Assembly (NCBI GenBank): GCA_036741775.1
Contig: DAINRQ010000030.1
Coordinates: 477-64,476, forward strand
DNA from: Gemmatimonadaceae bacterium
GTDB taxonomy: Bacteria > Gemmatimonadota > Gemmatimonadetes > Gemmatimonadales > Gemmatimonadaceae
Reading direction: 5' to 3'
DNA length: 64,000 nt
A program made the translations under genes and the position numbers. The notes beneath the pieces were generated by a model. That model was not told the origin of the DNA. It did no database searches and worked only from the letters and a program-made list of their open reading frames with translations. This document shows, one piece after another, positions 1,975-63,254 of the stretch. Each line of letters begins with the position of its first letter. Within the stretch, counting starts at the first letter, position 1.

Positions 1975-2340
1975 TGCTCCGAGCTTCTCGTGCCCGCGCG
2001 TGCACCTCGCCTCCGAGCGTCATCGCGCCCTGTACGCATCGCGACCGGTCCGGGAACGGCAGTGGAGACCGGATGGACAGGATGAACAACATGACCAAGA
2101 TGACCAACGCGGCAGCGGCGTCGATCTCCCAACGAGCCGGACATGAATAGGGGAACGCCCGCTCGGGAAGCACCGTCCCCGAGAGCCGTTCCCCTCTGTT
2201 TTTTCAGGCCGCTGGCGCGCGCGACGGCGCCGCCGCGCAGGACATCTTCGTCATCCCGTGAATCCTGTCCATCCTGTCTCTTGCCGTTCAATGACCGGTC
2301 GCGATGCGTACCGGGCGCGATGACGCTCGGAGTCGGGATT
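1975..2340. repeat. structured palindromic repeat, family 1, copy A (two ~160-nt modules in inverted orientation)
   Basis: Left arm 2011..2050 (ctccgagcgtcatcgcgccctgtacgcatcgcgaccggtc) is the near-exact reverse complement of 2293..2332. Symmetry continues inward through 9-nt periodic words (ggatggaca ggatgaaca / aatcctgtc catcctgtc) to a central hairpin ggggaacg...cgttcccc centred near 2172. The same modules recur at 10447 and 61218. Confidence 0.85.
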
Positions 2341-3135: not shown

Positions 3136-4652
3136 ACCCGTTCGACTCGCAGCACGTTCGTGGTACCCGGGACGTCGAACGGCACGCCGGCCGTCACGAG
3201 GACACGGTCGCCTTCCTTGGCCAGGCCGCGAGACAGGACGACGTCGCGCGCTTTCGCGACCATCGCCTCGTACGTGGCACAATGCGGCACGAGCGCGGGA
3301 ACGACCCCCCACACGAGCGCGAGCTGACTGTACGTGCGTGGTTCGTCGGTGAGCGCGAGAATCGGAACAGCCGGCCGGTGTGCCGACACGATCCGCGCGC
3401 TGGAGCCGCTCTTCGTGAACACGATGATGATCGGCGCCCCGAGCATCCGCTGCGCGGTGTCGGTGGCCGCCGCGATCGTTTCTTCGGTGGTCGCAATGAT
3501 CTCGGGGGCGCGTTGGCCGTCGCGCGCTCGCTTGAACGGATGTTGCTCGATCTCGGAGATGATCCGCTGCATTGCCTGTACGGCAAGGCGCGGGTACGCG
3601 CCGGCGGCGGTCTCGGCCGAGAGCATCACGGCGTCGGTGCCATCGATGATCGCGTTGGCGACGTCACTCGCCTCGGCACGCGTGGGACGCGGATTCTCGA
3701 TCATCGACTCGAGCATCTGCGTCGCCGTGATCACCGGCCGCCCGATGAGGTTGGCCAGCTTGATGATCCGCTTCTGTGCAATGGGTACTTCCTCGAACGG
3801 CAGCTCGACGCCGAGGTCACCGCGCGCGACCATCACGCCGTCCGATGCGCGGAGAATGCTGTCGATGTTCTCGAGTGCCGAATCCTTCTCGATCTTCGCG
3901 ATGATGAGCAGCGACTTGGGGACGAGCTCGCGAAGCTCCGCGAGGTCGGCCGCCCGGCGCACGAAGCTCAAGGCGAGATAGTCCAGCTTCTGCTCGACGG
4001 CGAACGCCGCGTCCGCACGATCTTTCTCGGTGATCGATGGCGCGGAGACGTTCACGCCGGGCAGGTTGATCCCCTTGTGACTCTTCACCTCCCCGCCGTG
4101 GACGACGCGCGCCACCACGCGCGGCGCCTTCACCTCGAGCGCGACGAGCTCGATCACGCCGTCATCGACGAGGATGCGGTCACCGACGTGCACGTCATCC
4201 GCGAGCGCGGCGTACGTGACGGGCATCTCGCCATCGCGCGCCGTGCCCTCGGGACAGAACACGACATCCTCCCCGGGCTCGACCTGACGCGGTGCGTCGA
4301 GATCACCGATCCGGATGCGCGGCCCCTGCAGGTCGCCAAGGATCGCCACGGGCCGGTGACGTTTGCCAGCGAGCTCACGAACGATCGCGATCGTCTTCGC
4401 GTGCTGTTCGTGCGTCCCGTGGGAGAAGTTGATGCGCGCGACGTCGAGCCCCGCATCCATCAGCGCACCGATCGCCTCTGGGGTTCTGCTCGCGGGGCCG
4501 AGGGTGCACACGATTTTCGTGCGCGGCTGGCGGTTTGGTGCCACGGCGAGTCGCGCGGGGGATGGAGCGGTGCTCGCGGACACGTCGTCAGGCGCGTGCG
4601 TCGGAGCGCCGGCGGTGTCCGCCGGTGAATCGGTCCACGAAGCGTGGCTCAT
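3132..4652 (-). CDS. pyk: pyruvate kinase
   Basis: TKIVCTLGPASR, INFSHG, MVARGDLGVELP and ITATQMLESM motifs. Trimmed to ATG 4652 (MSHASW...); the rest of ORF 3132..5039 overlaps tal. Confidence 0.9.
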   Translation of the reverse strand: MSHASWTDSPADTAGAPTHAPDDVSASTAPSPARLAVAPNRQPRTKIVCTLGPASRTPEAIGALMDAGLDVARINFSHGTHEQHAKTIAIVRELAGKRHRPVAILGDLQGPRIRIGDLDAPRQVEPGEDVVFCPEGTARDGEMPVTYAALADDVHVGDRILVDDGVIELVALEVKAPRVVARVVHGGEVKSHKGINLPGVNVSAPSITEKDRADAAFAVEQKLDYLALSFVRRAADLAELRELVPKSLLIIAKIEKDSALENIDSILRASDGVMVARGDLGVELPFEEVPIAQKRIIKLANLIGRPVITATQMLESMIENPRPTRAEASDVANAIIDGTDAVMLSAETAAGAYPRLAVQAMQRIISEIEQHPFKRARDGQRAPEIIATTEETIAAATDTAQRMLGAPIIIVFTKSGSSARIVSAHRPAVPILALTDEPRTYSQLALVWGVVPALVPHCATYEAMVAKARDVVLSRGLAKEGDRVLVTAGVPFDVPGTTNVLRVERV

Positions 4653-10446: not shown

Positions 10447-10616
10447 ATCGGGAATCGGGACTCGCCTCTGGGACGCCACCGTCCCGCGAGCCGTTCCCCT
10501 GGCATTTCAGGCCGCTCGCGAGAGCGACCGTGCCGCCGCCCGAGTCATCTTCGTCATCCGTCCGTCCCGTCCGTCCTCTCCTCCTGCCGTTCCCGGACCG
10601 GTCGCGAAGCTCGGAG
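10447..10616. repeat. structured repeat, family 1, copy B (single module preceded by 2x CGGGAAT-like heptamers)
   Basis: ...gggacgccaccgtcccgcgagccgttcccct..caggccgctcgcgagagcgaccgtgccgccgc..catcttcgtcatcc..gccgttcccggaccggtcgcgaagctcggag aligns with the right-hand module of copy A and with 61244..61390. Lies between convergent genes. Confidence 0.8.
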
Positions 10617-10617
10617 A

Positions 10618-10638
10618 ACCTAACGAGCCCGCCTAACG
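10618..10638. other. two direct copies of the abundant octamer (ACCTAACG, GCCTAACG) 13 nt apart
   Basis: aaCCTAACGagcccGCCTAACGg. The second copy supplies the TAG stop (10635..10633) of the GAF/PAS kinase. See the octamer finding. Confidence 0.9.
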
Positions 10639-40361: not shown

Positions 40362-42347
40362 ATGCCATCCATCGCCCGTTACGCTCGCCGGGCCGTCGTC
40401 GCGATCGTCGCGGCCGGCTTCGCTCCCGGGATTGGCGCGGTCGCCCTGGCGCAGCCGACTGTGCAGCGCGACAGTGCGCTCGTGGCGCGCCGAGACTCCC
40501 TCGAGCGCGAGCTTCAGCGCATTGCCGTCGTCGAGCGGAAGCTCATGGTGCCCATGCGTGACGGCGCGCGGATGCAGTTCGACGTCTACCGCCCGAAGGA
40601 GGCCGCCGGACCGGTGCCGGCGATCTTCGTGCGAACGCCGTACAACATGAACTTCTGGGACGTGCAGCTCCGCGCGCCGGCGGACATGAGCGCTCAGCTC
40701 GAGGCGGTGAAGCGTGGGTACGCCTACGTCGGCGCGAACGAACGGGGCCATTTCTTCTCCGAGGGCAACTACGACATCCTGGGTCCGCCGGTCACGGATG
40801 GCGTGGACGAGATCGAGTGGATCGCGTCGCGGCCCTGGTCGAACGGCAAGGTGGGGTTGATCGGCTGTTCGTCCACGGCCGAGTGGCAGATGGCCGTCGC
40901 CGCGCAGGGCCCGCGGGGGTTGGGCACGATCATCCCCCAGGGGTTCGGCGCAGGGGTCGGACGCGTGAAGCCCTACTACGAGCAGGGGAACTGGTATCGC
41001 GGCGGCGCGGTCCAGCAGCTGTTCATCAGCTGGTTGTACGGCCAGCAGAACCAGGTACGGCCGATGTTCCCGCCGAACACGCCGCAGGAGGAATTGATTC
41101 GTGCGGCGAAGTCGTACGACCTCGCGCAGCGACTACCGCCGGTGGACTGGGCGAAAGCGTTCTGGCATCTACCGACGCAGGACCTCATCAAGGCAGTGGA
41201 CGGGCCACGGGGGATCTTCGCCGACTCGATGCCGGGCATCGCCACCGGCGGCGCGATGATCAAGCGCACGCCTAACGACTCGGCGTGGTATCGCGGGGGG
41301 CTCTTCCACGATGACATGAAGATCAACGTGCCGGGGCTCTGGATCATGACCTGGTACGACGTGTCGGTCGGGCCGAATCTCGCGACGTACAACCACGTGC
41401 GGCGCACTGCCGACTCCGCGGTCGCGAATCAGCAGTACGCGGTCATCGCACCGACGCTGCACTGTGCGCAGCGGCGGGCGACCGAGAACACGGTTGTCGG
41501 GGAACGCAGCGTCGGCGACGCGCGCTACGATTACGACGCCCTCACCTACGGCTGGTTCGACCACTTCCTCAAAGGGAAGGACAGCGGGCTGCTCGATACG
41601 ATGCCGAAGGTCCGCTACTTCACCATGGGCTCGAACAAGTGGCAGACGTCGGACACGTGGCCCCCCCGCGGCGCGCAGCCGATGACGTTCTACCTCTCGA
41701 GCAACGGCAGCGCGAACACGCGGAACGGCGACGGCGTGCTGACGACGCGGCTGCCGGCGCGCGATCGGCCCGACACGTTCTCGTACGACCCGAAGAACCC
41801 GGTGCCGTCGCGCGGAGGCAACGTCTGCTGCCAGGGCAACGCGGTGTCGGGCGGCGCGTTCGATCAGCGAGAGATCGAGCTGCGTCCCGACGTCCTCGTA
41901 TACACGACGGAGCCGCTGAAGGAAGGACTGGAGGTGTCCGGTCCGATCGACGTGACGATCTATCTCTCATCCGACCGAAAGGACACGGACGTCACGGTGA
42001 AGGTGCTCGACGTCTATCCCGACGGCCGGGCGTACAACCTCGACGAGACGATCCAACGCGTGCGCTACCGCGAGGGGTACGACAAGCCGCCGACGTGGAT
42101 GGAGCCAGGCAAGGTGTATAAGGTCCAGTTGCAACCGATGACGACGAGCAACTGGTTCGCGCCCGGTCACCGCATCCGGATCGAAGTGTCAAGCTCGAAC
42201 TTTCCGCGATTCGACCGCAACCTCAACACGGGCGGCAAGAACTACGACGAGGTTACCGGGCTCGTGGCGAAGAACAGCATTCACCACTCGAGGCAGTATC
42301 CGTCGCAGATCACGGTGTCCGTGGCAAAGAAGCCACCGGCGATGTAA
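40362..42347 (+). CDS. CocE/NonD-family hydrolase (peptidase S15, X-Pro dipeptidyl-peptidase-like), secreted
   Basis: ATG 40362 with GGAGG 6 nt upstream. Signal-like [17 protein letters not shown]; [17 protein letters not shown] (nucleophile elbow) and [14 protein letters not shown]. The 1199-aa track ORF is an out-of-frame upstream extension. Confidence 0.75.
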
Positions 42348-42424
42348 ACGGGGTCAGAGTCGAATATCATCGTTCCGTTGCGGCCGCAACGGAACGATGA
42401 TATTCGACTCTGACCCCGTTTACA
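42343..42424. repeat. perfect 82-nt palindrome centred on GCGGCCGC; probable bidirectional terminator
   Basis: tgtaaacggggtcagagtcgaatatcatcgttccgttgcggc | gccgcaacggaacgatgatattcgactctgaccccgtttaca. I checked every position from 42343 to 42424 as complementary. It contains the TAA of the S15 hydrolase gene and the TAA of priA. Confidence 0.9.
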
Positions 42425-58886: not shown

Positions 58887-59582
58887 CTAGCGCTTCTTTG
58901 GCGCTGCGGCCCGAACCTCGATCCGGTGCATCAACACGCGCGGTGGCGTGTCGATCGCGAACGCGACCGCGTCCGCGACGTCATCGGCCACGATCATCCA
59001 GCTCGTGTCGCGCGGGTCGCGGAAGAAGTCCGTGGCCACCGAGCCGGGATTCACGACGCTGACCTTCACCCCCTGATCGCGCACCTCGAGCATGAGTGAC
59101 TCGGCGAACCCCATGACGGCGTGCTTCGTTCCGCCGTAGCAGGTCCCGCCCACGAATGCGCTTCGGCCCGCTATCGAACCGATAATGACGATGTGCCCGC
59201 GCCCCCGCTCGACCATGCCGGGCAGGACCACGCGCGTGACGTGGTACAGCGCATTGAAGTTCACGTTCACCATCGTGTGCCACTCCTCGGGCGTGAGCTC
59301 GAGGAACGGCTTCAGGAAGCCGATGCCGGCGTTGTTCACGAGCACGTCGGCCCGCACGTCGCGCAGCGTCCGAGCTACGGCAGCCGAGTCGGCCACATCG
59401 ACCACGAGGGCATCGCAGCTACCCCCACGGCTCCTGATCTCTGCAGCGAGCGTCTCGAGGTCCTCGGCCGAGCGGGCTGCGGCGACAATGTGGTGATTCG
59501 AGCTCAGGCGTAGCGCTGTCGCTCGGCCGATCCCGCGCGAGGCGCCCGTAACGAGGGCGATGTCCCTGGATTCAGTCGTCAT
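58887..59582 (-). CDS. short-chain dehydrogenase/reductase (SDR) family oxidoreductase
   Basis: TGASRGIG, NNAG and YGGTK motifs. ATG overlaps the M20 stop (ATGA). Confidence 0.85.
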   Translation of the reverse strand: MTTESRDIALVTGASRGIGRATALRLSSNHHIVAAARSAEDLETLAAEIRSRGGSCDALVVDVADSAAVARTLRDVRADVLVNNAGIGFLKPFLELTPEEWHTMVNVNFNALYHVTRVVLPGMVERGRGHIVIIGSIAGRSAFVGGTCYGGTKHAVMGFAESLMLEVRDQGVKVSVVNPGSVATDFFRDPRDTSWMIVADDVADAVAFAIDTPPRVLMHRIEVRAAAPKKR

Positions 59583-61042
59583 CGCGTCACCCGCAGCATC
59601 GTGCCGTAGATGAGGCGCGTGCCGAAGTCGAGCGAACGGAGTGGAATGCGCTCGTCGTTCCCGTGCATGCGGTCCTCGTCGTCCTGGTTCATGGGAAAGG
59701 GGAGCACGCCGAACGCCTGCATGCCGAGCTGACGGAGCCGGGCGCTGTCGGTGGCGCCTGTGCTCAGGTACGGTACGGTGACCATGTCGGGGGCCAGCTC
59801 CTTCACACTCTCCGCGATCGCGCGGAAGAGCGGCGATGAGAAGTCCGACGGGGGCGCGTCCTCACCGCGGTCGGTGATCGTGAGCTGCACCATCGAATCG
59901 TTCACGACGCGCCGGAGACGCGCGACGACCGAGTCAATGGATTGCCCGGGCAGCGTGCGGATGTTGAGCGTCGCGGTGGCCTCCGTGGGAATCACGTTCG
60001 ACCGGATGCCTCCGTTCACGATGGTCGCGGAAATCCCGGTGCGAAGGACGGCGTCGAAGACCGGCGTGGACGCAAGCACGCGAGCGCCACGCGCGATGCG
60101 CGAGGAGTTCCGCGACGCAACGTCAGCCATCGCGCGGCGCTCCGACGCGTCCGGCCACACGGTCGCGAGCTCGCCGAAGAAGGCCCGCGTAGTGGGGTTC
60201 ACTTGCGTAGGCTCGCGATGTCGCCCGATCGCGGCCAGCGCTCGTCCAAGACGCGTGATCGCGTTCCCCGCGAGCGGGATGGACGCGTGTCCCCCAGGCC
60301 CGCGCGCCGTCACGGTGACGGTGTGCGGGACTTTCTCTGTGTTCTGCACGGCGACGTAGAGCGGCTTACCGCGCACGATGCGCGTGCGTCCACCCTCGTT
60401 CAGCGCGAACTCGGCGTCGATGAGATCGCGGTGGTTGGAAATGAGCCACCCCATGCCGTAATCGCCGCCTGCCTCTTCATCCGAGTTCGCCACGAAGATC
60501 ACGTCGCGGGACAGCTTCCCTCCCGCGTCGAGCACGTGCTGTTTCAGCAGCAACATCGTTTGCAGGTTCGCCGCGAGCATCCCCTTGTCATCGATGGCGC
60601 CGCGCCCGTACAGGTACTCGCCTTTGATCTCCGCGGCGAATGGATCGACCGTCCATTTGTCCGGTTCGACGCCGACGACGTCCATGTGCCCCATGATGAT
60701 CACCGGGCGTCGCGACCCGTCCCCGCGCAGCCGGGCGACGAGCGCCGCTCGGCCCGGCGCCGGCTCGAAGAGATGCGTCTCGATGCCGGCGGCCTTGAGG
60801 GTGCTGTCGAGGTACCGGGCGACGCCGATCTCGTTACCCGGCGGGTTCACGGTATTGATGCGGATCATGCGCTGCAGATGCGCGAGCGTCTCCCGCGAGA
60901 CGGCGTCCCAATCGGGAGCTTGCGCGCCTGCGGGCGCGGCAGCGGTCGTCAGCGTCATGAGCAGGGCGTACCGGAATGGTCGGCGAGCAATTCGAATCAT
61001 GCGTCGGGTGCGTAGGTGTGAGCCGAGCATGAAGAGTCGCAT
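59579..61042 (-). CDS. M20/M25/M40-family metallopeptidase, secreted
   Basis: Signal-like LLMTLTTAAAPAGAQA, IIMGHMDVV, GRGAIDDKG and SDEEAGG. ATG 61000 is an alternative start. Confidence 0.8.
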   Translation of the reverse strand: MRLFMLGSHLRTRRMIRIARRPFRYALLMTLTTAAAPAGAQAPDWDAVSRETLAHLQRMIRINTVNPPGNEIGVARYLDSTLKAAGIETHLFEPAPGRAALVARLRGDGSRRPVIIMGHMDVVGVEPDKWTVDPFAAEIKGEYLYGRGAIDDKGMLAANLQTMLLLKQHVLDAGGKLSRDVIFVANSDEEAGGDYGMGWLISNHRDLIDAEFALNEGGRTRIVRGKPLYVAVQNTEKVPHTVTVTARGPGGHASIPLAGNAITRLGRALAAIGRHREPTQVNPTTRAFFGELATVWPDASERRAMADVASRNSSRIARGARVLASTPVFDAVLRTGISATIVNGGIRSNVIPTEATATLNIRTLPGQSIDSVVARLRRVVNDSMVQLTITDRGEDAPPSDFSSPLFRAIAESVKELAPDMVTVPYLSTGATDSARLRQLGMQAFGVLPFPMNQDDEDRMHGNDERIPLRSLDFGTRLIYGTMLRVTR

Positions 61043-61091
61043 CCCCTAGAGAGCAGATCAAATGCCGCAACCGCCGGTGCGATCAGCGGCG

Positions 61092-61129
61092 CAGCGCTGG
61101 TTGCTGTTCGCCCGGTTGGTAGCTACAGG
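61092..61129. repeat. partial family-2-like repeat (GCTGGTT-type words)
   Basis: cagcgctggttgctgttcgcccggttggtagctacagg resembles cgctggtcgctgttagctgg... at 31629 and agcgctggttgcgctggttgc at 31791. Confidence 0.4.
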
Positions 61130-61217
61130 GTGAACAACCACGCGTATAGGGCCCGGCGCGCGCGGGCCGGTCGGAACGGCGATGGGCGCGGATGAGGCGG
61201 AAATGGCGGGATCGTGT

Positions 61218-61680
61218 CGGGAATCGGGAATCGGGAATCGCTTCCGGGACGCCACCGTCACTGGGAGCCGTTCCCCTCTTTCTTTCAGCCCGCTGGGGCG
61301 AGCGACCGTGCCGCCGCGCAGGGCATCTTCGTAATCCTGTTAATCCTGTCCATCCTGTCTTTTGCCTTTCGTCTTTTGCCTTTCCCGTTCTTCGCTCCGA
61401 GCGTCGGCGCGCGAGTCCGCATCGCGACCGGTCCCGGAAAACGGCAGGGGAGACAGGATGAACAGGATGGACAGGATGACGAAGATGACTCGGGCGACGG
61501 CACCGTCGCTCGCGTCAGCGGCCTGAAGAGAAGAGGGAACGGCTCTCCGGGACGGCACCGTCCCCGAGAGCCGTTCTCGCGCTCCTCCCGGCTCGTTGCG
61601 CGAGGAGTCGTCACGGCCGAGGAGCCATCCCGTTCCACCGGTCACATCCTGCCATCCTGTCTCTGCCCATACTGTCCATC
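61218..61680. repeat. structured repeat, family 1, copy C: (CGGGAAT)x3 followed by three modules in alternating orientation
   Basis: 61244..61390 aligns with the right-hand module of copy A. 61391..61576 aligns with the left-hand module, forming a hairpin around 61395..61435. 61577..61680 is a diverged third module. Conserved blocks: gagccgttcccc, catcttcgt(c/a)atcc, (a/c)atcctgtc x3, gcatcgcgaccggtc, ctccgagcg. Confidence 0.85.
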
Positions 61681-61733
61681 GCGTTATGGTGCGGCTCGAG
61701 CCACACGCTGCCTAACGACGCTACCAGCCAGTA

Positions 61734-63254
61734 TCAGGCGGAGAGACCGTGCTCGATAGCCTCGACCAGCGGCCCGAATGACAATCCAGCAGTACCCACC
61801 CGGCGACCAAGCTCGGAGGCGAGTTCGCGCTGCCCCTCCCCGAACAGCTCGCGGACGACCCACGGGCCCGCTCGCGGGTTTCGGTACCAATCGTCGTCGA
61901 ATGTCGATACGAGCACATCCCGCAGCGCCGCCTGCAGCTGCCACGCGCGGAGGTACCGCGCGGCGTAAAAGCGGGGATCCACATCCACGAACGCGTCCGA
62001 TGGCCGGTACCGGAACAGCGTGGCCCCACTGAGGATGTCGACGTACGCATCCGGCAACGAGGACCATGACACATCGCCGCCGTACAGCCGACGCTCGTAC
62101 AGAAGCTTCGCCGCGTAGCGCCGCAGGAACTGCAGCTCCTCGAATGCCGCGGCGCGCCGGTAATCCCCGACCCGCGCCCCGCCTAACGCCGAGTAGCGGA
62201 GGAGCCACCCGGTGTCGTGCATGAGATGGTCGAAGAGCATGGCGTACCCCTCGGTGATCGAGTTGTCGCCGAGCCACCGGAACTCGAACGGGAGGTCGTC
62301 GCGCATGTACGCGAAGTGCAGCGTGTGCCCGAGCTCGTGCAGGAGCGTCCGGTAGTCGGTCGCGCCGCCGTGTGGGAGCAACACCAGGTAGACCTCGTGG
62401 GGGATGCGCACGGGCGCACAGAAGGCGCGCGACCGCTTCCCTGGCCGCTCCCCGAGGTCGAAGATCGCGCGTCCGTTCGCCGTTGGATCGATCCCCATCT
62501 CGCCAACCTGCCGTCGAACGACCGACTCCATGTCGGCCGCCGGAAAGTAGGGGTCGAACCGCGGCGCACGGAGCAGCGCGAGCGCGTCGGCCCGCGTGGC
62601 TTCGGCCGGGAGAATGCCAAGCTGCTTCCGCACCTGCTCACGATGCACCTCGGCCCACATCGCCTCGGTGTCCTTCAGGAAGCGGTCGCAGTCCGCCGCC
62701 AGGGCCTGAAGGTCGATCCCGCTCAGCGCCTCGAACGTCGCAAGGTATCCAGGCGCGATCTCGAGCGACTCGATGAGGTCGCGCTCGCGCTGGAGCCGCT
62801 CCGACCTCAACGGCGACAGTTCGCGGGTGACGAGCGCCGAGCGTGCTTCGTCGAGCGCGAGACGCTCGTTCCGGTCGGGCAGGGTGGCGAGGTCCACCGC
62901 AACGCGCTGATACGGCACCTGCCGACCATCGGCGAGCTGGACGACCGCGCTCGCTTCCCAGGCGATGATCCGCTCGTCCAGCTCCGCGAGTGTTCGCGAC
63001 GCGTGCGCCTCGACCTGCCAGTCGAGCAGCGCCCGGGCCGCGCGCCACTCCTCGGTGCCCTCGGTCGCCCCACGAAACGCGTCACGCGTCAGCTCGAGCG
63101 CGCCCGGCCCCAGCACGTGAGAGAAGCGGTCGTAGATCGGGCGCAGCTCGGCGTTAGGCTTGTGCCCGGCGAGCGCCAGATGTTGTTCGCGAGACAGCGC
63201 CTCCATGAATCGCTCGCCGTCGGTCCGGAGCGCCGTCAGCGTGAGATCGGCCAT
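61734..63254 (-). CDS. M3-family oligoendopeptidase (PepF-like)
   Basis: Zinc motif LLHELGHTLHF in a roughly 500-aa cytoplasmic protein. Confidence 0.75.
   Translation of the reverse strand: MADLTLTALRTDGERFMEALSREQHLALAGHKPNAELRPIYDRFSHVLGPGALELTRDAFRGATEGTEEWRAARALLDWQVEAHASRTLAELDERIIAWEASAVVQLADGRQVPYQRVAVDLATLPDRNERLALDEARSALVTRELSPLRSERLQRERDLIESLEIAPGYLATFEALSGIDLQALAADCDRFLKDTEAMWAEVHREQVRKQLGILPAEATRADALALLRAPRFDPYFPAADMESVVRRQVGEMGIDPTANGRAIFDLGERPGKRSRAFCAPVRIPHEVYLVLLPHGGATDYRTLLHELGHTLHFAYMRDDLPFEFRWLGDNSITEGYAMLFDHLMHDTGWLLRYSALGGARVGDYRRAAAFEELQFLRRYAAKLLYERRLYGGDVSWSSLPDAYVDILSGATLFRYRPSDAFVDVDPRFYAARYLRAWQLQAALRDVLVSTFDDDWYRNPRAGPWVVRELFGEGQRELASELGRRVGTAGLSFGPLVEAIEHGLSA

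Follow-up and report, generated by a model that had tools for sequence, protein, structure and literature searches.

A chain of dispersed hairpin-forming repeat modules in the spacer between two peptidase genes of a soil Gemmatimonadaceae bacterium

We analysed a 64,000-nt stretch of DNA from a soil Gemmatimonadaceae bacterium (GenBank assembly GCA_036741775.1, contig DAINRQ010000030.1, positions 477 to 64,476 of the forward strand), which we call the window. Positions 61043-61733 of the window are a 690-nt spacer without a gene, and it lies between two peptidase genes (Table 1). For the M20 peptidase, homology with relatives begins at residue 10 or later, and the true start of this gene is probably near 61000. 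The ORFs that cross the spacer (181, 117, 101 and 89 aa) had no match in a Pfam search and carry no codon signal, which agrees with a preliminary description of this DNA that saw no coding character here. A blastn search of PLSDB for a plasmid origin gave no match.

The spacer is a chain of dispersed non-coding repeat modules that form hairpins; it is not a gene and it is not a unique RNA. The chain opens with a B arm and its heptamers, followed by a hairpin, an inverted short A arm, a 14-nt tandem junction, a full A arm, a second hairpin and lastly the degenerate third arm. The predicted fold of the spacer is far more stable than that of shuffled sequence (z = -10.3). It contains an 87-nt inverted repeat, where 61274-61360 pairs with 61451-61537 at 82% complementarity, and a 31-nt direct repeat at 61243-61273 and 61546-61576. 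The features that the preliminary description had named (a word block, heptamers, modules, 9-nt words and an octamer) are all present in the sequence. The octamer GCCTAACG is found at 61710 as described; it has 2,861 copies in the genome and is unrelated to the repeat modules.

Table 1. Features of the spacer, its flanking genes and other family-1 copies in the window. Positions are those of the window; C30 marks positions on the contig.
Feature	Position	Strand	Evidence and remarks
Complete 'T1' family-1 palindrome, two full arms around core hairpin 2150-2193	2009..2333		Profile matches; fold z = -16.1
Single family-1 arm with core hairpin 10469-10497	10480..10626	-	Profile matches; CGGGAAT-like units before it
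M20 peptidase gene, flanking	59579..61042	-	Pfam PF01546, E = 1.2e-27
Family-2 ('B') arm	61092..61239	+	nhmmer profile match, 121.5 bits; GCTGGTT word block 61092-61129; heptamer array at end
(CGGGAAT)x3.3 tandem array (GGGAATC unit)	61218..61240	+	Seen in sequence; inner end of B arm, beside core hairpin
Core hairpin h, copy 1, degenerate	61244..61275		h profile match; followed by TCTTTCTTTC on + strand
Short family-1 ('A') arm	61255..61370 (C30:61731-61846)	-	97 bits, profile positions 48-163; 'short arm' subfamily
GTCTTTTGCCTTTC x2 tandem, junction typical of 13 'T2' composites	61357..61384	+	Repeat search; alignment of 13 composites
Full family-1 arm	61392..61554 (C30:61868-62030)	+	132 bits, profile positions 2-162
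Core hairpin h, copy 2, GGGAACGGCTCTCCGGGACG-GCAC-CGTCCCCGAGAGCCGTTC	61535..61576		h profile match; inverted repeat; C/T-rich tract after it on minus strand
Third arm, degenerate	61558..61666	-	40 bits, profile positions 53-163
Small palindrome GTGCGGCTCGAGCCACAC	61689..61706		Inverted repeat; unique sequence between repeat mosaic and stop codon of M3-like gene
Octamer GCCTAACG	61710..61717	+	Seen in sequence
M3-like (HExxH) peptidase gene, flanking	61734..63254	-	PF01432 weak, sub-cut-off, E = 3.7e-4; relatives keep synteny

We took the borders of the family-1 modules from a profile made from genomic copies. Three such modules in alternating orientation had been proposed for the spacer, and all three match the profile, but the proposed borders were off by 10-20 nt and the third module is degenerate. 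The short A arm bears the 9-mers AATCCTGTT, AATCCTGTC and CATCCTGTC, while the full A arm has the outer terminus CTCCGAGC, the block CATCGCGACCGG, (CAGGATGNN)x3 and a 22-codon ORF; the 9-nt words are those of 61334-61360 and of 61454-61480. Comparison with Bb centres identified the third arm as a hybrid, in which a C-type module (CCCGGCTCGTTGCGCG) is joined to the end of an A arm that has the 9-mers, and third arms of this kind also occur on contigs C9, C161 and C69. A pattern scan scored one terminator-like site in the spacer, a weak one at 61263-61275. The copies at about 2 kb and 10.5 kb that had been assigned to the same family are real members of it, as judged from profile matches.

The modules belong to a superfamily with a common core, which is a GC-rich hairpin of ~44 nt (GGGGAACGGCCGCCCGGGACG-CCAC-CGTCCC..GCCGTTCCCC) between an A-rich and a T/C-rich tract. 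The arms that sit on the core are interchangeable and of several types: the 'A' arm is 163 nt long and has (NNGGATGNN)n 9-mers, the 'B' arm ends in (GGGAATC)n, and there are others. The arm patterns Aa, aA, AaA, AaAb, Bb and Ab recur, as do certain junctions and composites, and in T1 elements the outer ends CTCCGAGC...GCTCGGAG are terminal inverted repeats. In a genome-wide profile search we found 135 family-1 (A) arms at 85 loci, far above chance, and 210 copies of family 2 (B) on 91 contigs, counts that are lower bounds because the genome is a fragmented MAG (263 contigs, 92% complete) and the repeats are concentrated near contig ends (31 loci vs 16.5 expected). The consensus of family 2 ends in three heptamer units. 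Core hairpins were found at 125 loci; 25 of these are outside the A and B loci and have other arm types, and 23 of the 25 are intergenic. A search for further copies had been proposed as a check on the preliminary description, and more than 200 loci of the module families are present. Repeats of this type fill ~4% of the non-coding DNA of the genome.

About 90% of the repeat sequence is outside predicted CDS, in a genome that is 14% non-coding. Convergent spacers hold 36% of the A loci and 46% of the B loci, compared to a background of 19%, and 76% of the core hairpins are within 300 nt after the 3' end of a gene; these position statistics are approximate because our gene calls are crude (ORF/GC3). 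A minority of the A loci are next to FtsX/PadR cassettes, which is a ~3-fold enrichment (20% vs about 6%). We estimated the clustering of A loci, and the number of pairs within 10 kb was about equal to chance.

Heptamer repeats with the units GGGAATC and GGGGA(C/T)T have been described in Xanthomonas and in Nostoc, where the units are STRR repeats, and the description covers intergenic tandem GGGAATC, convergent pairs, arrays that favour four units and the formation of quadruplexes (Rehm et al. 2015, PLoS One, PMC4692102). Our genome has 93 perfect GGGAATC arrays of at least 2 units, all with the identical unit, since (CGGGAAT)n equals (GGGAATC)n, and intergenic as in those organisms. The arrays vary in length, as they do there, from 2 to 8 units (2:35, 3:20, 4:25, 5:4, 6:1, 7:6, 8:2), and the peak at 4 is only a secondary one. 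As in those repeats, neighbouring arrays are convergent with the G-rich array always before the C-rich one (11 vs 0), and arrays are sense near stop codons and antisense near starts. Unlike the Xanthomonas and Nostoc repeats, the heptamers of this Gemmatimonadaceae genome, which is from a different phylum, are the inner end of a larger B arm that abuts a conserved core hairpin. The sister genome has (GGGGACT)n hairpins at one of the heptamer/module sites, as seen when we compared the 2-kb site.

The modules have been copied around the genome as cassettes, and they are located almost only in intergenic DNA, preferentially behind gene 3' ends. A 330-nt unit of short arm, junction and full arm (T2) is present in 13 copies, which have a derived junction in common. 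The larger composite of the spacer is collinear at three or four other loci, with matches of 535, 496 and 462 nt at C9:41104, C9:47764 and C28:4228, and therefore cassettes were copied as units. Identity reaches ~87% in the best pairs of arms and 85% in the best composite; judged by these values there are no very recent copies.

The modules also vary between sister species in their presence, arm number and arrangement. In the closest relative (G003, DASURJ010000487.1) the orthologous spacer is 158 nt and has only a 77-nt fragment of an arm, and there are elements of G003 that are absent or reduced in our genome (G000) at C44, C107, C162 and C16. At the 2-kb site, G000 and G003 have the T1 element, and the site is empty in both G005 and G002. 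Two loci (C149 and C135) have one arm in one species and two or three arms in another, and at one site (L068 / C40) we found T1 versus T2. Comparison of orthologous spacers had been suggested earlier, and it did reveal presence/absence and arm-number differences between sister species. Together with the 13 T2 composites and the collinear matches of 460-535 nt, these differences uphold the earlier proposal of a MITE-like unit that multiplies or recombines as a cassette. Across the genus, A arms are present in 2 of the 7 species and the core hairpin pattern is in all 7 genomes (124, 109, 44, 23, 15, 12 and 3 half-sites). This pattern occurs 0-1 times per genome across 34 genomes of other genera, as does a reversed control pattern, and on this comparison the superfamily appears to be specific to the genus.

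We searched for an orthology signal in the arms at syntenic loci of two species and found none; these copies are as much alike as random members of the family (identity of 0.758 for syntenic and 0.764 for non-syntenic pairs, permutation 1501/2000). Between the same two species, third codon positions in the flanks are 0.734 identical, and the invariant columns of the arms are 0.93 identical between copies at syntenic loci. In total, conservation is 96% or higher in 42 of the 158 columns of the arm, where 0.03 would be expected under a uniform rate. The lack of an orthology signal, combined with one third of positions that are nearly invariant, suggests either that copies turn over at sites which are reused or that motifs are constrained. 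We also considered an old burst followed by neutral decay, and rejected it on the extreme site heterogeneity and the missing orthology signal. The overall element identity of 0.64-0.76 had fitted that scenario when set against a silent-site identity of 0.734.

The explanation that we consider likely is that the spacer consists of non-coding hairpin modules from a genus-specific palindromic ('foldback') superfamily, which is built around one core hairpin and has spread as cassettes. The modules would be non-autonomous mobile elements whose spread takes place at the DNA level, probably by way of single-strand hairpins and into reused landing sites. A putative enzyme would mobilise them, and this machinery, or a host factor, may recognise the CTCCGAGC terminus, CATCGCGACCGG, the GGATG 9-mers, GAAGATGAC and the hairpin core. 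From its shape and position, we predict that the core hairpin with its A and T/C tracts is probably a two-way transcription stop or a stabiliser of 3' ends. REP, BIME and ERIC-type repeats act in these ways.

The spacer modules are a local form, not described before, of the REP/BIME/MITE-type repeats that are known from other bacteria. A full-text literature search for Gemmatimonadetes together with REP returned nothing relevant. REP and BIME, including REPIN doublets, form mosaics in E. coli and other proteobacteria, and BIME-type mosaics bind IHF, DNA gyrase or Pol I. Like them, our superfamily has an imperfect GC-rich palindrome in hundreds of copies outside genes. These copies alternate in orientation, form mosaics with a few linker modules, for the most part follow the ends of genes or sit between convergent ones, and are lineage-specific. 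Unlike them, the arms are long (about 115-163 nt) and complex, with tandem sub-repeats of 7, 9 and 14 nt, and whole elements reach 330-650 nt. We rejected a link to RAYT (Y1 transposase): the REP beside the RAYT genes of the genus, including the one in our genome, is of a different family from the spacer modules, in contrast to the REP/REPIN-RAYT system, in which the gene lies beside copies of the dispersed REP itself. Of six RAYT loci examined in five genomes of the genus, five are flanked by GGGGTCAGAKYC repeats, a classical REP, and none of the six had a match to the core hairpin, A or B profiles.

The modules share with MITEs (such as Correia, ERIC/IRU and Nezha) a length of 150-650 nt, long inverted repeats at the ends from which a single long hairpin forms, a non-coding and intergenic nature, subfamilies that are copied as units, and presence/absence differences between close relatives. 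They differ from MITEs in that the core hairpin at the centre is common to the families and the arms differ, the opposite of what MITEs usually show. We saw no target-site duplication at the three filled-versus-empty sites where we looked for one (2-kb, C44 and C107), although the flanks there are diverged, and we found no parent IS with the same ends. Two of the 'empty' sites hold CTCCGAGC-like remnants. We looked for an autonomous parent among 14 inverted module pairs that are 0.5-4 kb apart in the genome. In the four A-flanked intervals between such pairs we found genes for FtsX-type permeases or PadR-like regulators, or other ORFs, and a Pfam check on these four recognised no transposase; absence of an autonomous partner is not proven by this, because the genome is 92% complete. 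These comparisons do not demonstrate a classical MITE with a target-site duplication and an autonomous partner.

A more specific reading, which we think is possible but rather unlikely, is an active system of site-specific hairpin elements, in which a putative mobilising enzyme continually replaces copies at fixed landing pads behind genes. The continual replacement would be why the likeness of syntenic copies does not exceed that of random members. The invariant motifs would be recognition sites, with CTCCGAGC, CATCGCGACCGG, the 9-nt-spaced GGATG and the core hairpin serving either a new transposase or recombinase of single-strand DNA or a host factor dedicated to the elements. The core hairpin is described in this reading as having one conserved side and one free side. 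If the reading were true, the heptamer G-tract arrays of Xanthomonas and Nostoc would be one arm type of such elements and not independent simple repeats.

Another way to account for the conserved motifs, with a protein-binding array as the preliminary description had offered, is that the modules have a function for the host, where selection keeps the invariant motifs in each copy for a protein of the host or for non-B DNA. The motifs would be the 9-nt-spaced GGATG 9-mers, CATCGCGACCGG, the core hairpin with its conservation on one side and the G-tracts of GGGAATC, which could form quadruplexes, and the users could be a nucleoid-associated protein, gyrase or IHF as at BIMEs, or a regulator. 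The excess of conserved arm columns fits this, as does their 93% identity between syntenic copies of two species when silent sites are at 73%. In the hairpin, the internal side GCCGCCC is conserved and the facing side is variable and mostly unpaired, and the heptamers follow the positional and 'G-rich first' rules of Xanthomonas, with 11 pairs vs 0 (PMC4692102). However, the same conservation would arise with no host function if only copies with intact motifs propagate and turnover is fast, and the missing orthology signal of syntenic copies fits turnover. Five of the 7 members of the genus are entirely without A arms, so any function is dispensable, and no candidate protein was identified. 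We consider binding arrays unlikely.

The preliminary description had also offered a structured ncRNA family. On this reading, the modules would be cis-acting 3'-UTR elements or small RNAs and the long hairpin would be what functions. Very stable predicted folds (z = -10.3 for the spacer and -16.1 for the T1 element) and the position downstream of genes would suit this, and in six syntenic element pairs there are 19 positions where both partners changed and kept the pair, when about 8 are expected. However, the 98 copies of the core hairpin have no covariation: the paired fraction is 0.641 vs 0.658 for shuffled copies, and compensatory cells are 124 vs 169. In the syntenic element pairs, one-sided changes break the pair in 106 of 149 cases. 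The partner arms of an element are each other's closest relative in 0 of 46, and the strand relative to co-oriented neighbour genes is even (20 vs 20). Rfam gave 0 matches at the gathering score over the whole window, and with E up to 1 only sub-threshold noise from hairpins of miRNA precursors. These results do not support the ncRNA option, and we believe it to be very unlikely.

It is more improbable still that the A arms are small genes, each encoding a peptide of 22 residues (consensus MDRMNRMTKMTRAAARSLAPAA). A GGAG ribosome-binding site is 5 nt upstream of the ATG, and the 22-codon frame is intact in 36 of the 98 arms, with 12 more that differ by whole 9-nt units (16, 19 and 25 codons). 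Against a peptide, variability is equal over the three codon positions (0.17, 0.14, 0.16), pN/pS is 0.73 in frame vs 0.90 and 1.45 in the other frames, and about half of the copies are frameshifted or have the stop read through; the frame is open inwards in both arms of the palindrome, which symmetry alone predicts. We rejected the small-peptide gene since this often intact ORF has no codon-position or pN/pS signal. We give almost no credence to the spacer being an assembly or binning artefact with collapsed or chimeric repeats: the MAG has many contigs and the repeats are enriched near contig ends, but an independently assembled sister genome has the same families at similar copy number and at syntenic loci with both flanks conserved, and the spacer itself is inside a 65-kb contig, between two conserved genes.

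Our analysis of the spacer is a descriptive result on an uncultured lineage. Repeats made of these modules interrupt the assembly of metagenomes, give rise to long spurious ORFs and can pass for genes or RNAs, so recognising them improves the annotation of Gemmatimonadaceae. Hairpin modules spread as cassettes also offer three handles on an old question, namely what moves and maintains REP-like and heptamer repeats where the bacterium has no obvious partner transposase: one core hairpin serves several arm families, the GGGAATC heptamers of Xanthomonas are here within a larger element, and syntenic copies have no orthology signal and yet have islands of invariant motifs.

A mosaic of palindromic repeat modules, dispersed in the genome and of the REP/BIME/MITE kind, fills the spacer (61043-61733) that separates the M20 peptidase gene from the M3-like one; it is neither a gene nor a demonstrable structured RNA. 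We found in its sequence all of the features that the preliminary description had listed there, and they are collected in the table with their coordinates. A Pfam search with the ORFs that cross the spacer gave no match. The stretch 61200-61733 has a fold energy of -293.5 kcal/mol, against -220 in shuffles (z = -10.3).

Features of the spacer and its flanks, with examples from other contigs (C) of the same genome; bare coordinates are window positions
Feature	Position	Strand	Remark
M20 peptidase gene	59579-61042	-	Pfam PF01546, E = 1.2e-27
M3-like HExxH peptidase gene	61734-63254	-	
(CGGGAAT)x3.3	61218-61240		
9-nt words	61334-61360 and 61454-61480		
87-nt inverted repeat	61274-61360 with 61451-61537		82% complementary
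31-nt direct repeat	61243-61273 with 61546-61576		
14-nt tandem, GTCTTTTGCCTTTC x2	61357-61384		
Octamer GCCTAACG	61710-61717		
A-arm module 1	61255-61370	-	profile score 97 bits
A-arm module 2	61392-61554	+	profile score 132 bits
A-arm module 3	61558-61666	-	profile score 40 bits
FtsX/MacB-type permeases	C161:4475-7159, C149:7608-10723, C35:46401-49413		
Core hairpins with a further arm type	C15:7503-7545, C27:55354-55397, C50:43581-43625		

The probable start codon of the M20 peptidase is the ATG at 61000 rather than the one at 61042. Its N-terminus then reads MIRIARR... and is signal-peptide-like, and likeness to relatives sets in at residue 10 or later. With this start the spacer would be about 733 nt long.

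An iterated nhmmer profile of 163 positions, built from one arm of family 1 (the A arm), found 135 A arms at 85 loci in the assembly that holds the window, G000 (7.24 Mb, 67% G+C, 263 contigs). They are laid out as 44 singles, 21 head-to-head pairs (T1), 8 back-to-back pairs, several triplets and one quadruplet. T1 is a palindrome of about 330 nt (for example 2009-2333 of the window, fold z = -16.1). The upstream 200 nt of the spacer belong to family 2 (the B arm), which is about 150 nt long with CGGGAAT units at its end. Its 210 copies are spread over 91 contigs; they include 107 singles, 31 inverted pairs and 24 cases in which the neighbor is an A arm, always in the same orientation relative to the B arm.

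Single arms carry a terminal hairpin without exception, this hairpin also lies in the centers of B pairs, beside a third short module, and its profile alone finds 125 loci in G000, so we regard this core hairpin as the common denominator of the families. It is about 44 nt long (GGGGAACGGCCGCCCGGGACG-CCAC-CGTCCC..GCCGTTCCCC), with an A-rich tract before it and a T/C-rich tract after it. GCCGCCC, on one side of its internal part, is conserved: at ≤3 mismatches it has 91 matches, and its reversed control has none. The opposite side varies and is for the most part not complementary to it. At 25 of the 125 hairpins the arm is of yet another type, containing GGAGCGATCCGCCCCGATC and GGTCTCGCAATGACC as words, which adds a fourth module family to the superfamily.

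The composite of 61243-61576 is present at 13 loci. In each, a hairpin is followed by a short arm that spans profile positions 163 to 49, then by a tandem junction of the GTCTTTTGCC type, by a full arm (positions 3 to 163) and by a second hairpin. Because the short arms of all 13 have the derived characters AAAAGACAGG and GTTAATCCTG in common, we conclude that copying acted on the composite as a whole. The wider mosaic is also collinear elsewhere, over 535 nt at 77% identity (C9:41104-41649), 496 nt (C9:47764) and 462 nt (C28:4228).

Gene calls by a crude ORF/GC3 method (5,523 genes, 86% coding) place about 90% of the A and B sequence outside CDS. Of the A loci 36%, and of the B loci 46%, fall in convergent spacers, which make up 19% of all spacers; divergent spacers are depleted. 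Ninety-five of the 125 core hairpins lie ≤300 nt past a gene 3' end (median 182 nt), and just 47 lie ≤300 nt from a 5' end. Between co-oriented genes we saw no strand preference, with the conserved side sense in 20 cases and antisense in 20. The FtsX/MacB-type permeases (~880-920 aa), often preceded by a PadR-like regulator, are a very large paralogous family with 154 blastp hits in G000; they neighbor 20% of family-1 and 13% of family-2 loci, where ~6% would be expected.

The A arm holds a GGAG-N5-ATG followed by a 22-codon frame (MDRMNRMTKMTRAAARSLAPAA), which about half of the copies keep intact. Variability is equal at the three codon positions and pN/pS is 0.73, and we reject a peptide gene. 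An Rfam search for structured RNA returned nothing, and there was no covariation among 98 copies of the core hairpin (paired fraction 0.641 vs 0.658 in shuffles). Partner arms of one element were mutual nearest relatives in 0 of 46 cases. For six syntenic element pairs, double changes that keep a pair are mildly in excess (19 vs ~8 expected), and single changes mostly break pairs.

The only Y1 (RAYT) transposase gene detected in G000 (C1:46213-46917) has inverted flanking copies of a 31-nt REP, CTAATCGGGGTCAGATTCGAATATCATCGTT (C1:46203-47110), which differs from the A, B and core modules. In sister genomes we examined five RAYT loci, and four of them have the same REP on either side (GGGGTCAGAKYC flanks; four genomes). 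The window holds a doublet (REPIN) of this REP, which forms a perfect palindrome of 82 nt at 42343-42424. We recognized no transposase among the genes that we inspected in the intervals between paired inverted modules; these genes include FtsX-type permeases and PadR-like regulators. How the modules would be mobilized, and what host role (terminator, binding array) they may have, we can only infer.

Xanthomonas has the same heptamer as (CGGGAAT)n, described there as GGGAATC, and (GGGGACT)n of the congeneric genome G004 is the STRR-type unit of Nostoc (Rehm et al. 2015, PMC4692102). The rules in that paper for placement, pairing and sense/antisense bias also hold for G000: the arrays lie in intergenic DNA, are G-rich-first convergent when paired (11 vs 0), and are sense near stops and antisense near starts. 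Their unit number ranges from 2 to 8, and the peak at 4 is a secondary one. The octamer GCCTAACG is an uptake-signal-like or Chi/KOPS-like word that is independent of the repeat modules. With its complement it occurs 2,861 times in G000, against ~274 expected from base composition, and about 85% of copies are within predicted genes.

Every relative found by the flanking genes is a Gemmatimonadaceae MAG. Among seven genus genomes, we found A arms only in G000 and its sister G003; the hairpin pattern is in all seven (124, 109, 44, 23, 15, 12 and 3 half-sites), with 0-1 per genome in 34 genomes of other genera. The orthologous spacer in G003 and in public contig DASURJ010000487.1 is 158 nt, and its sole family content is a 77-nt arm fragment. 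Four genus members (L049-L052: G002, G004, G001, G005) have 1.7-2.0 kb of other DNA in this gap, and more distant relatives have 130-290 nt. G000 and G003 have an element at the locus ~1975-2340; in G005 and G002 this site is empty. In G004 (L056, C318 ~3746-3922) it holds a different hairpin with arms (GGGGACT)n / (AGTCCCC)n, so that different palindromic elements colonized this spacer in different species.

Most of the sites of twenty G003 elements that we compared are also filled in G000. One is empty (C44), three are reduced to remnants (C107, C162, C16), two have one arm against two or three in G003 (C149, C135), and one has T2, the short arm/junction/full arm composite, where G003 has T1. 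No target-site duplication was visible in these comparisons, and two "empty" sites bear short CTCCGAGC...GCTCGGAG remnants.

Whole syntenic elements of G000 and G003 are 64-76% identical, a level near the 73.4% at which third codon positions of their flanks agree. This first suggested neutral decay; however, the average masks strong site heterogeneity. The arm alignment has 158 columns; conservation reaches ≥96% in 42 of them (0.03 expected) and falls below 60% in 23. When column classes were set from other copies, twelve syntenic arm pairs had 93% identity in invariant, 82% in intermediate and 45% in variable columns. Non-syntenic cross-genome pairs match these figures, and overall the two kinds of pair score 0.758 (syntenic) vs 0.764 (permutation 1501/2000). 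Same-locus copies in the two species are thus no closer than random members. This fits copy turnover at reused landing sites, in which only lineages with intact motifs go on propagating; it also fits motifs held by host-level selection while the remaining positions are scrambled through exchange between copies. A mosaic of this kind is unpublished for this lineage.
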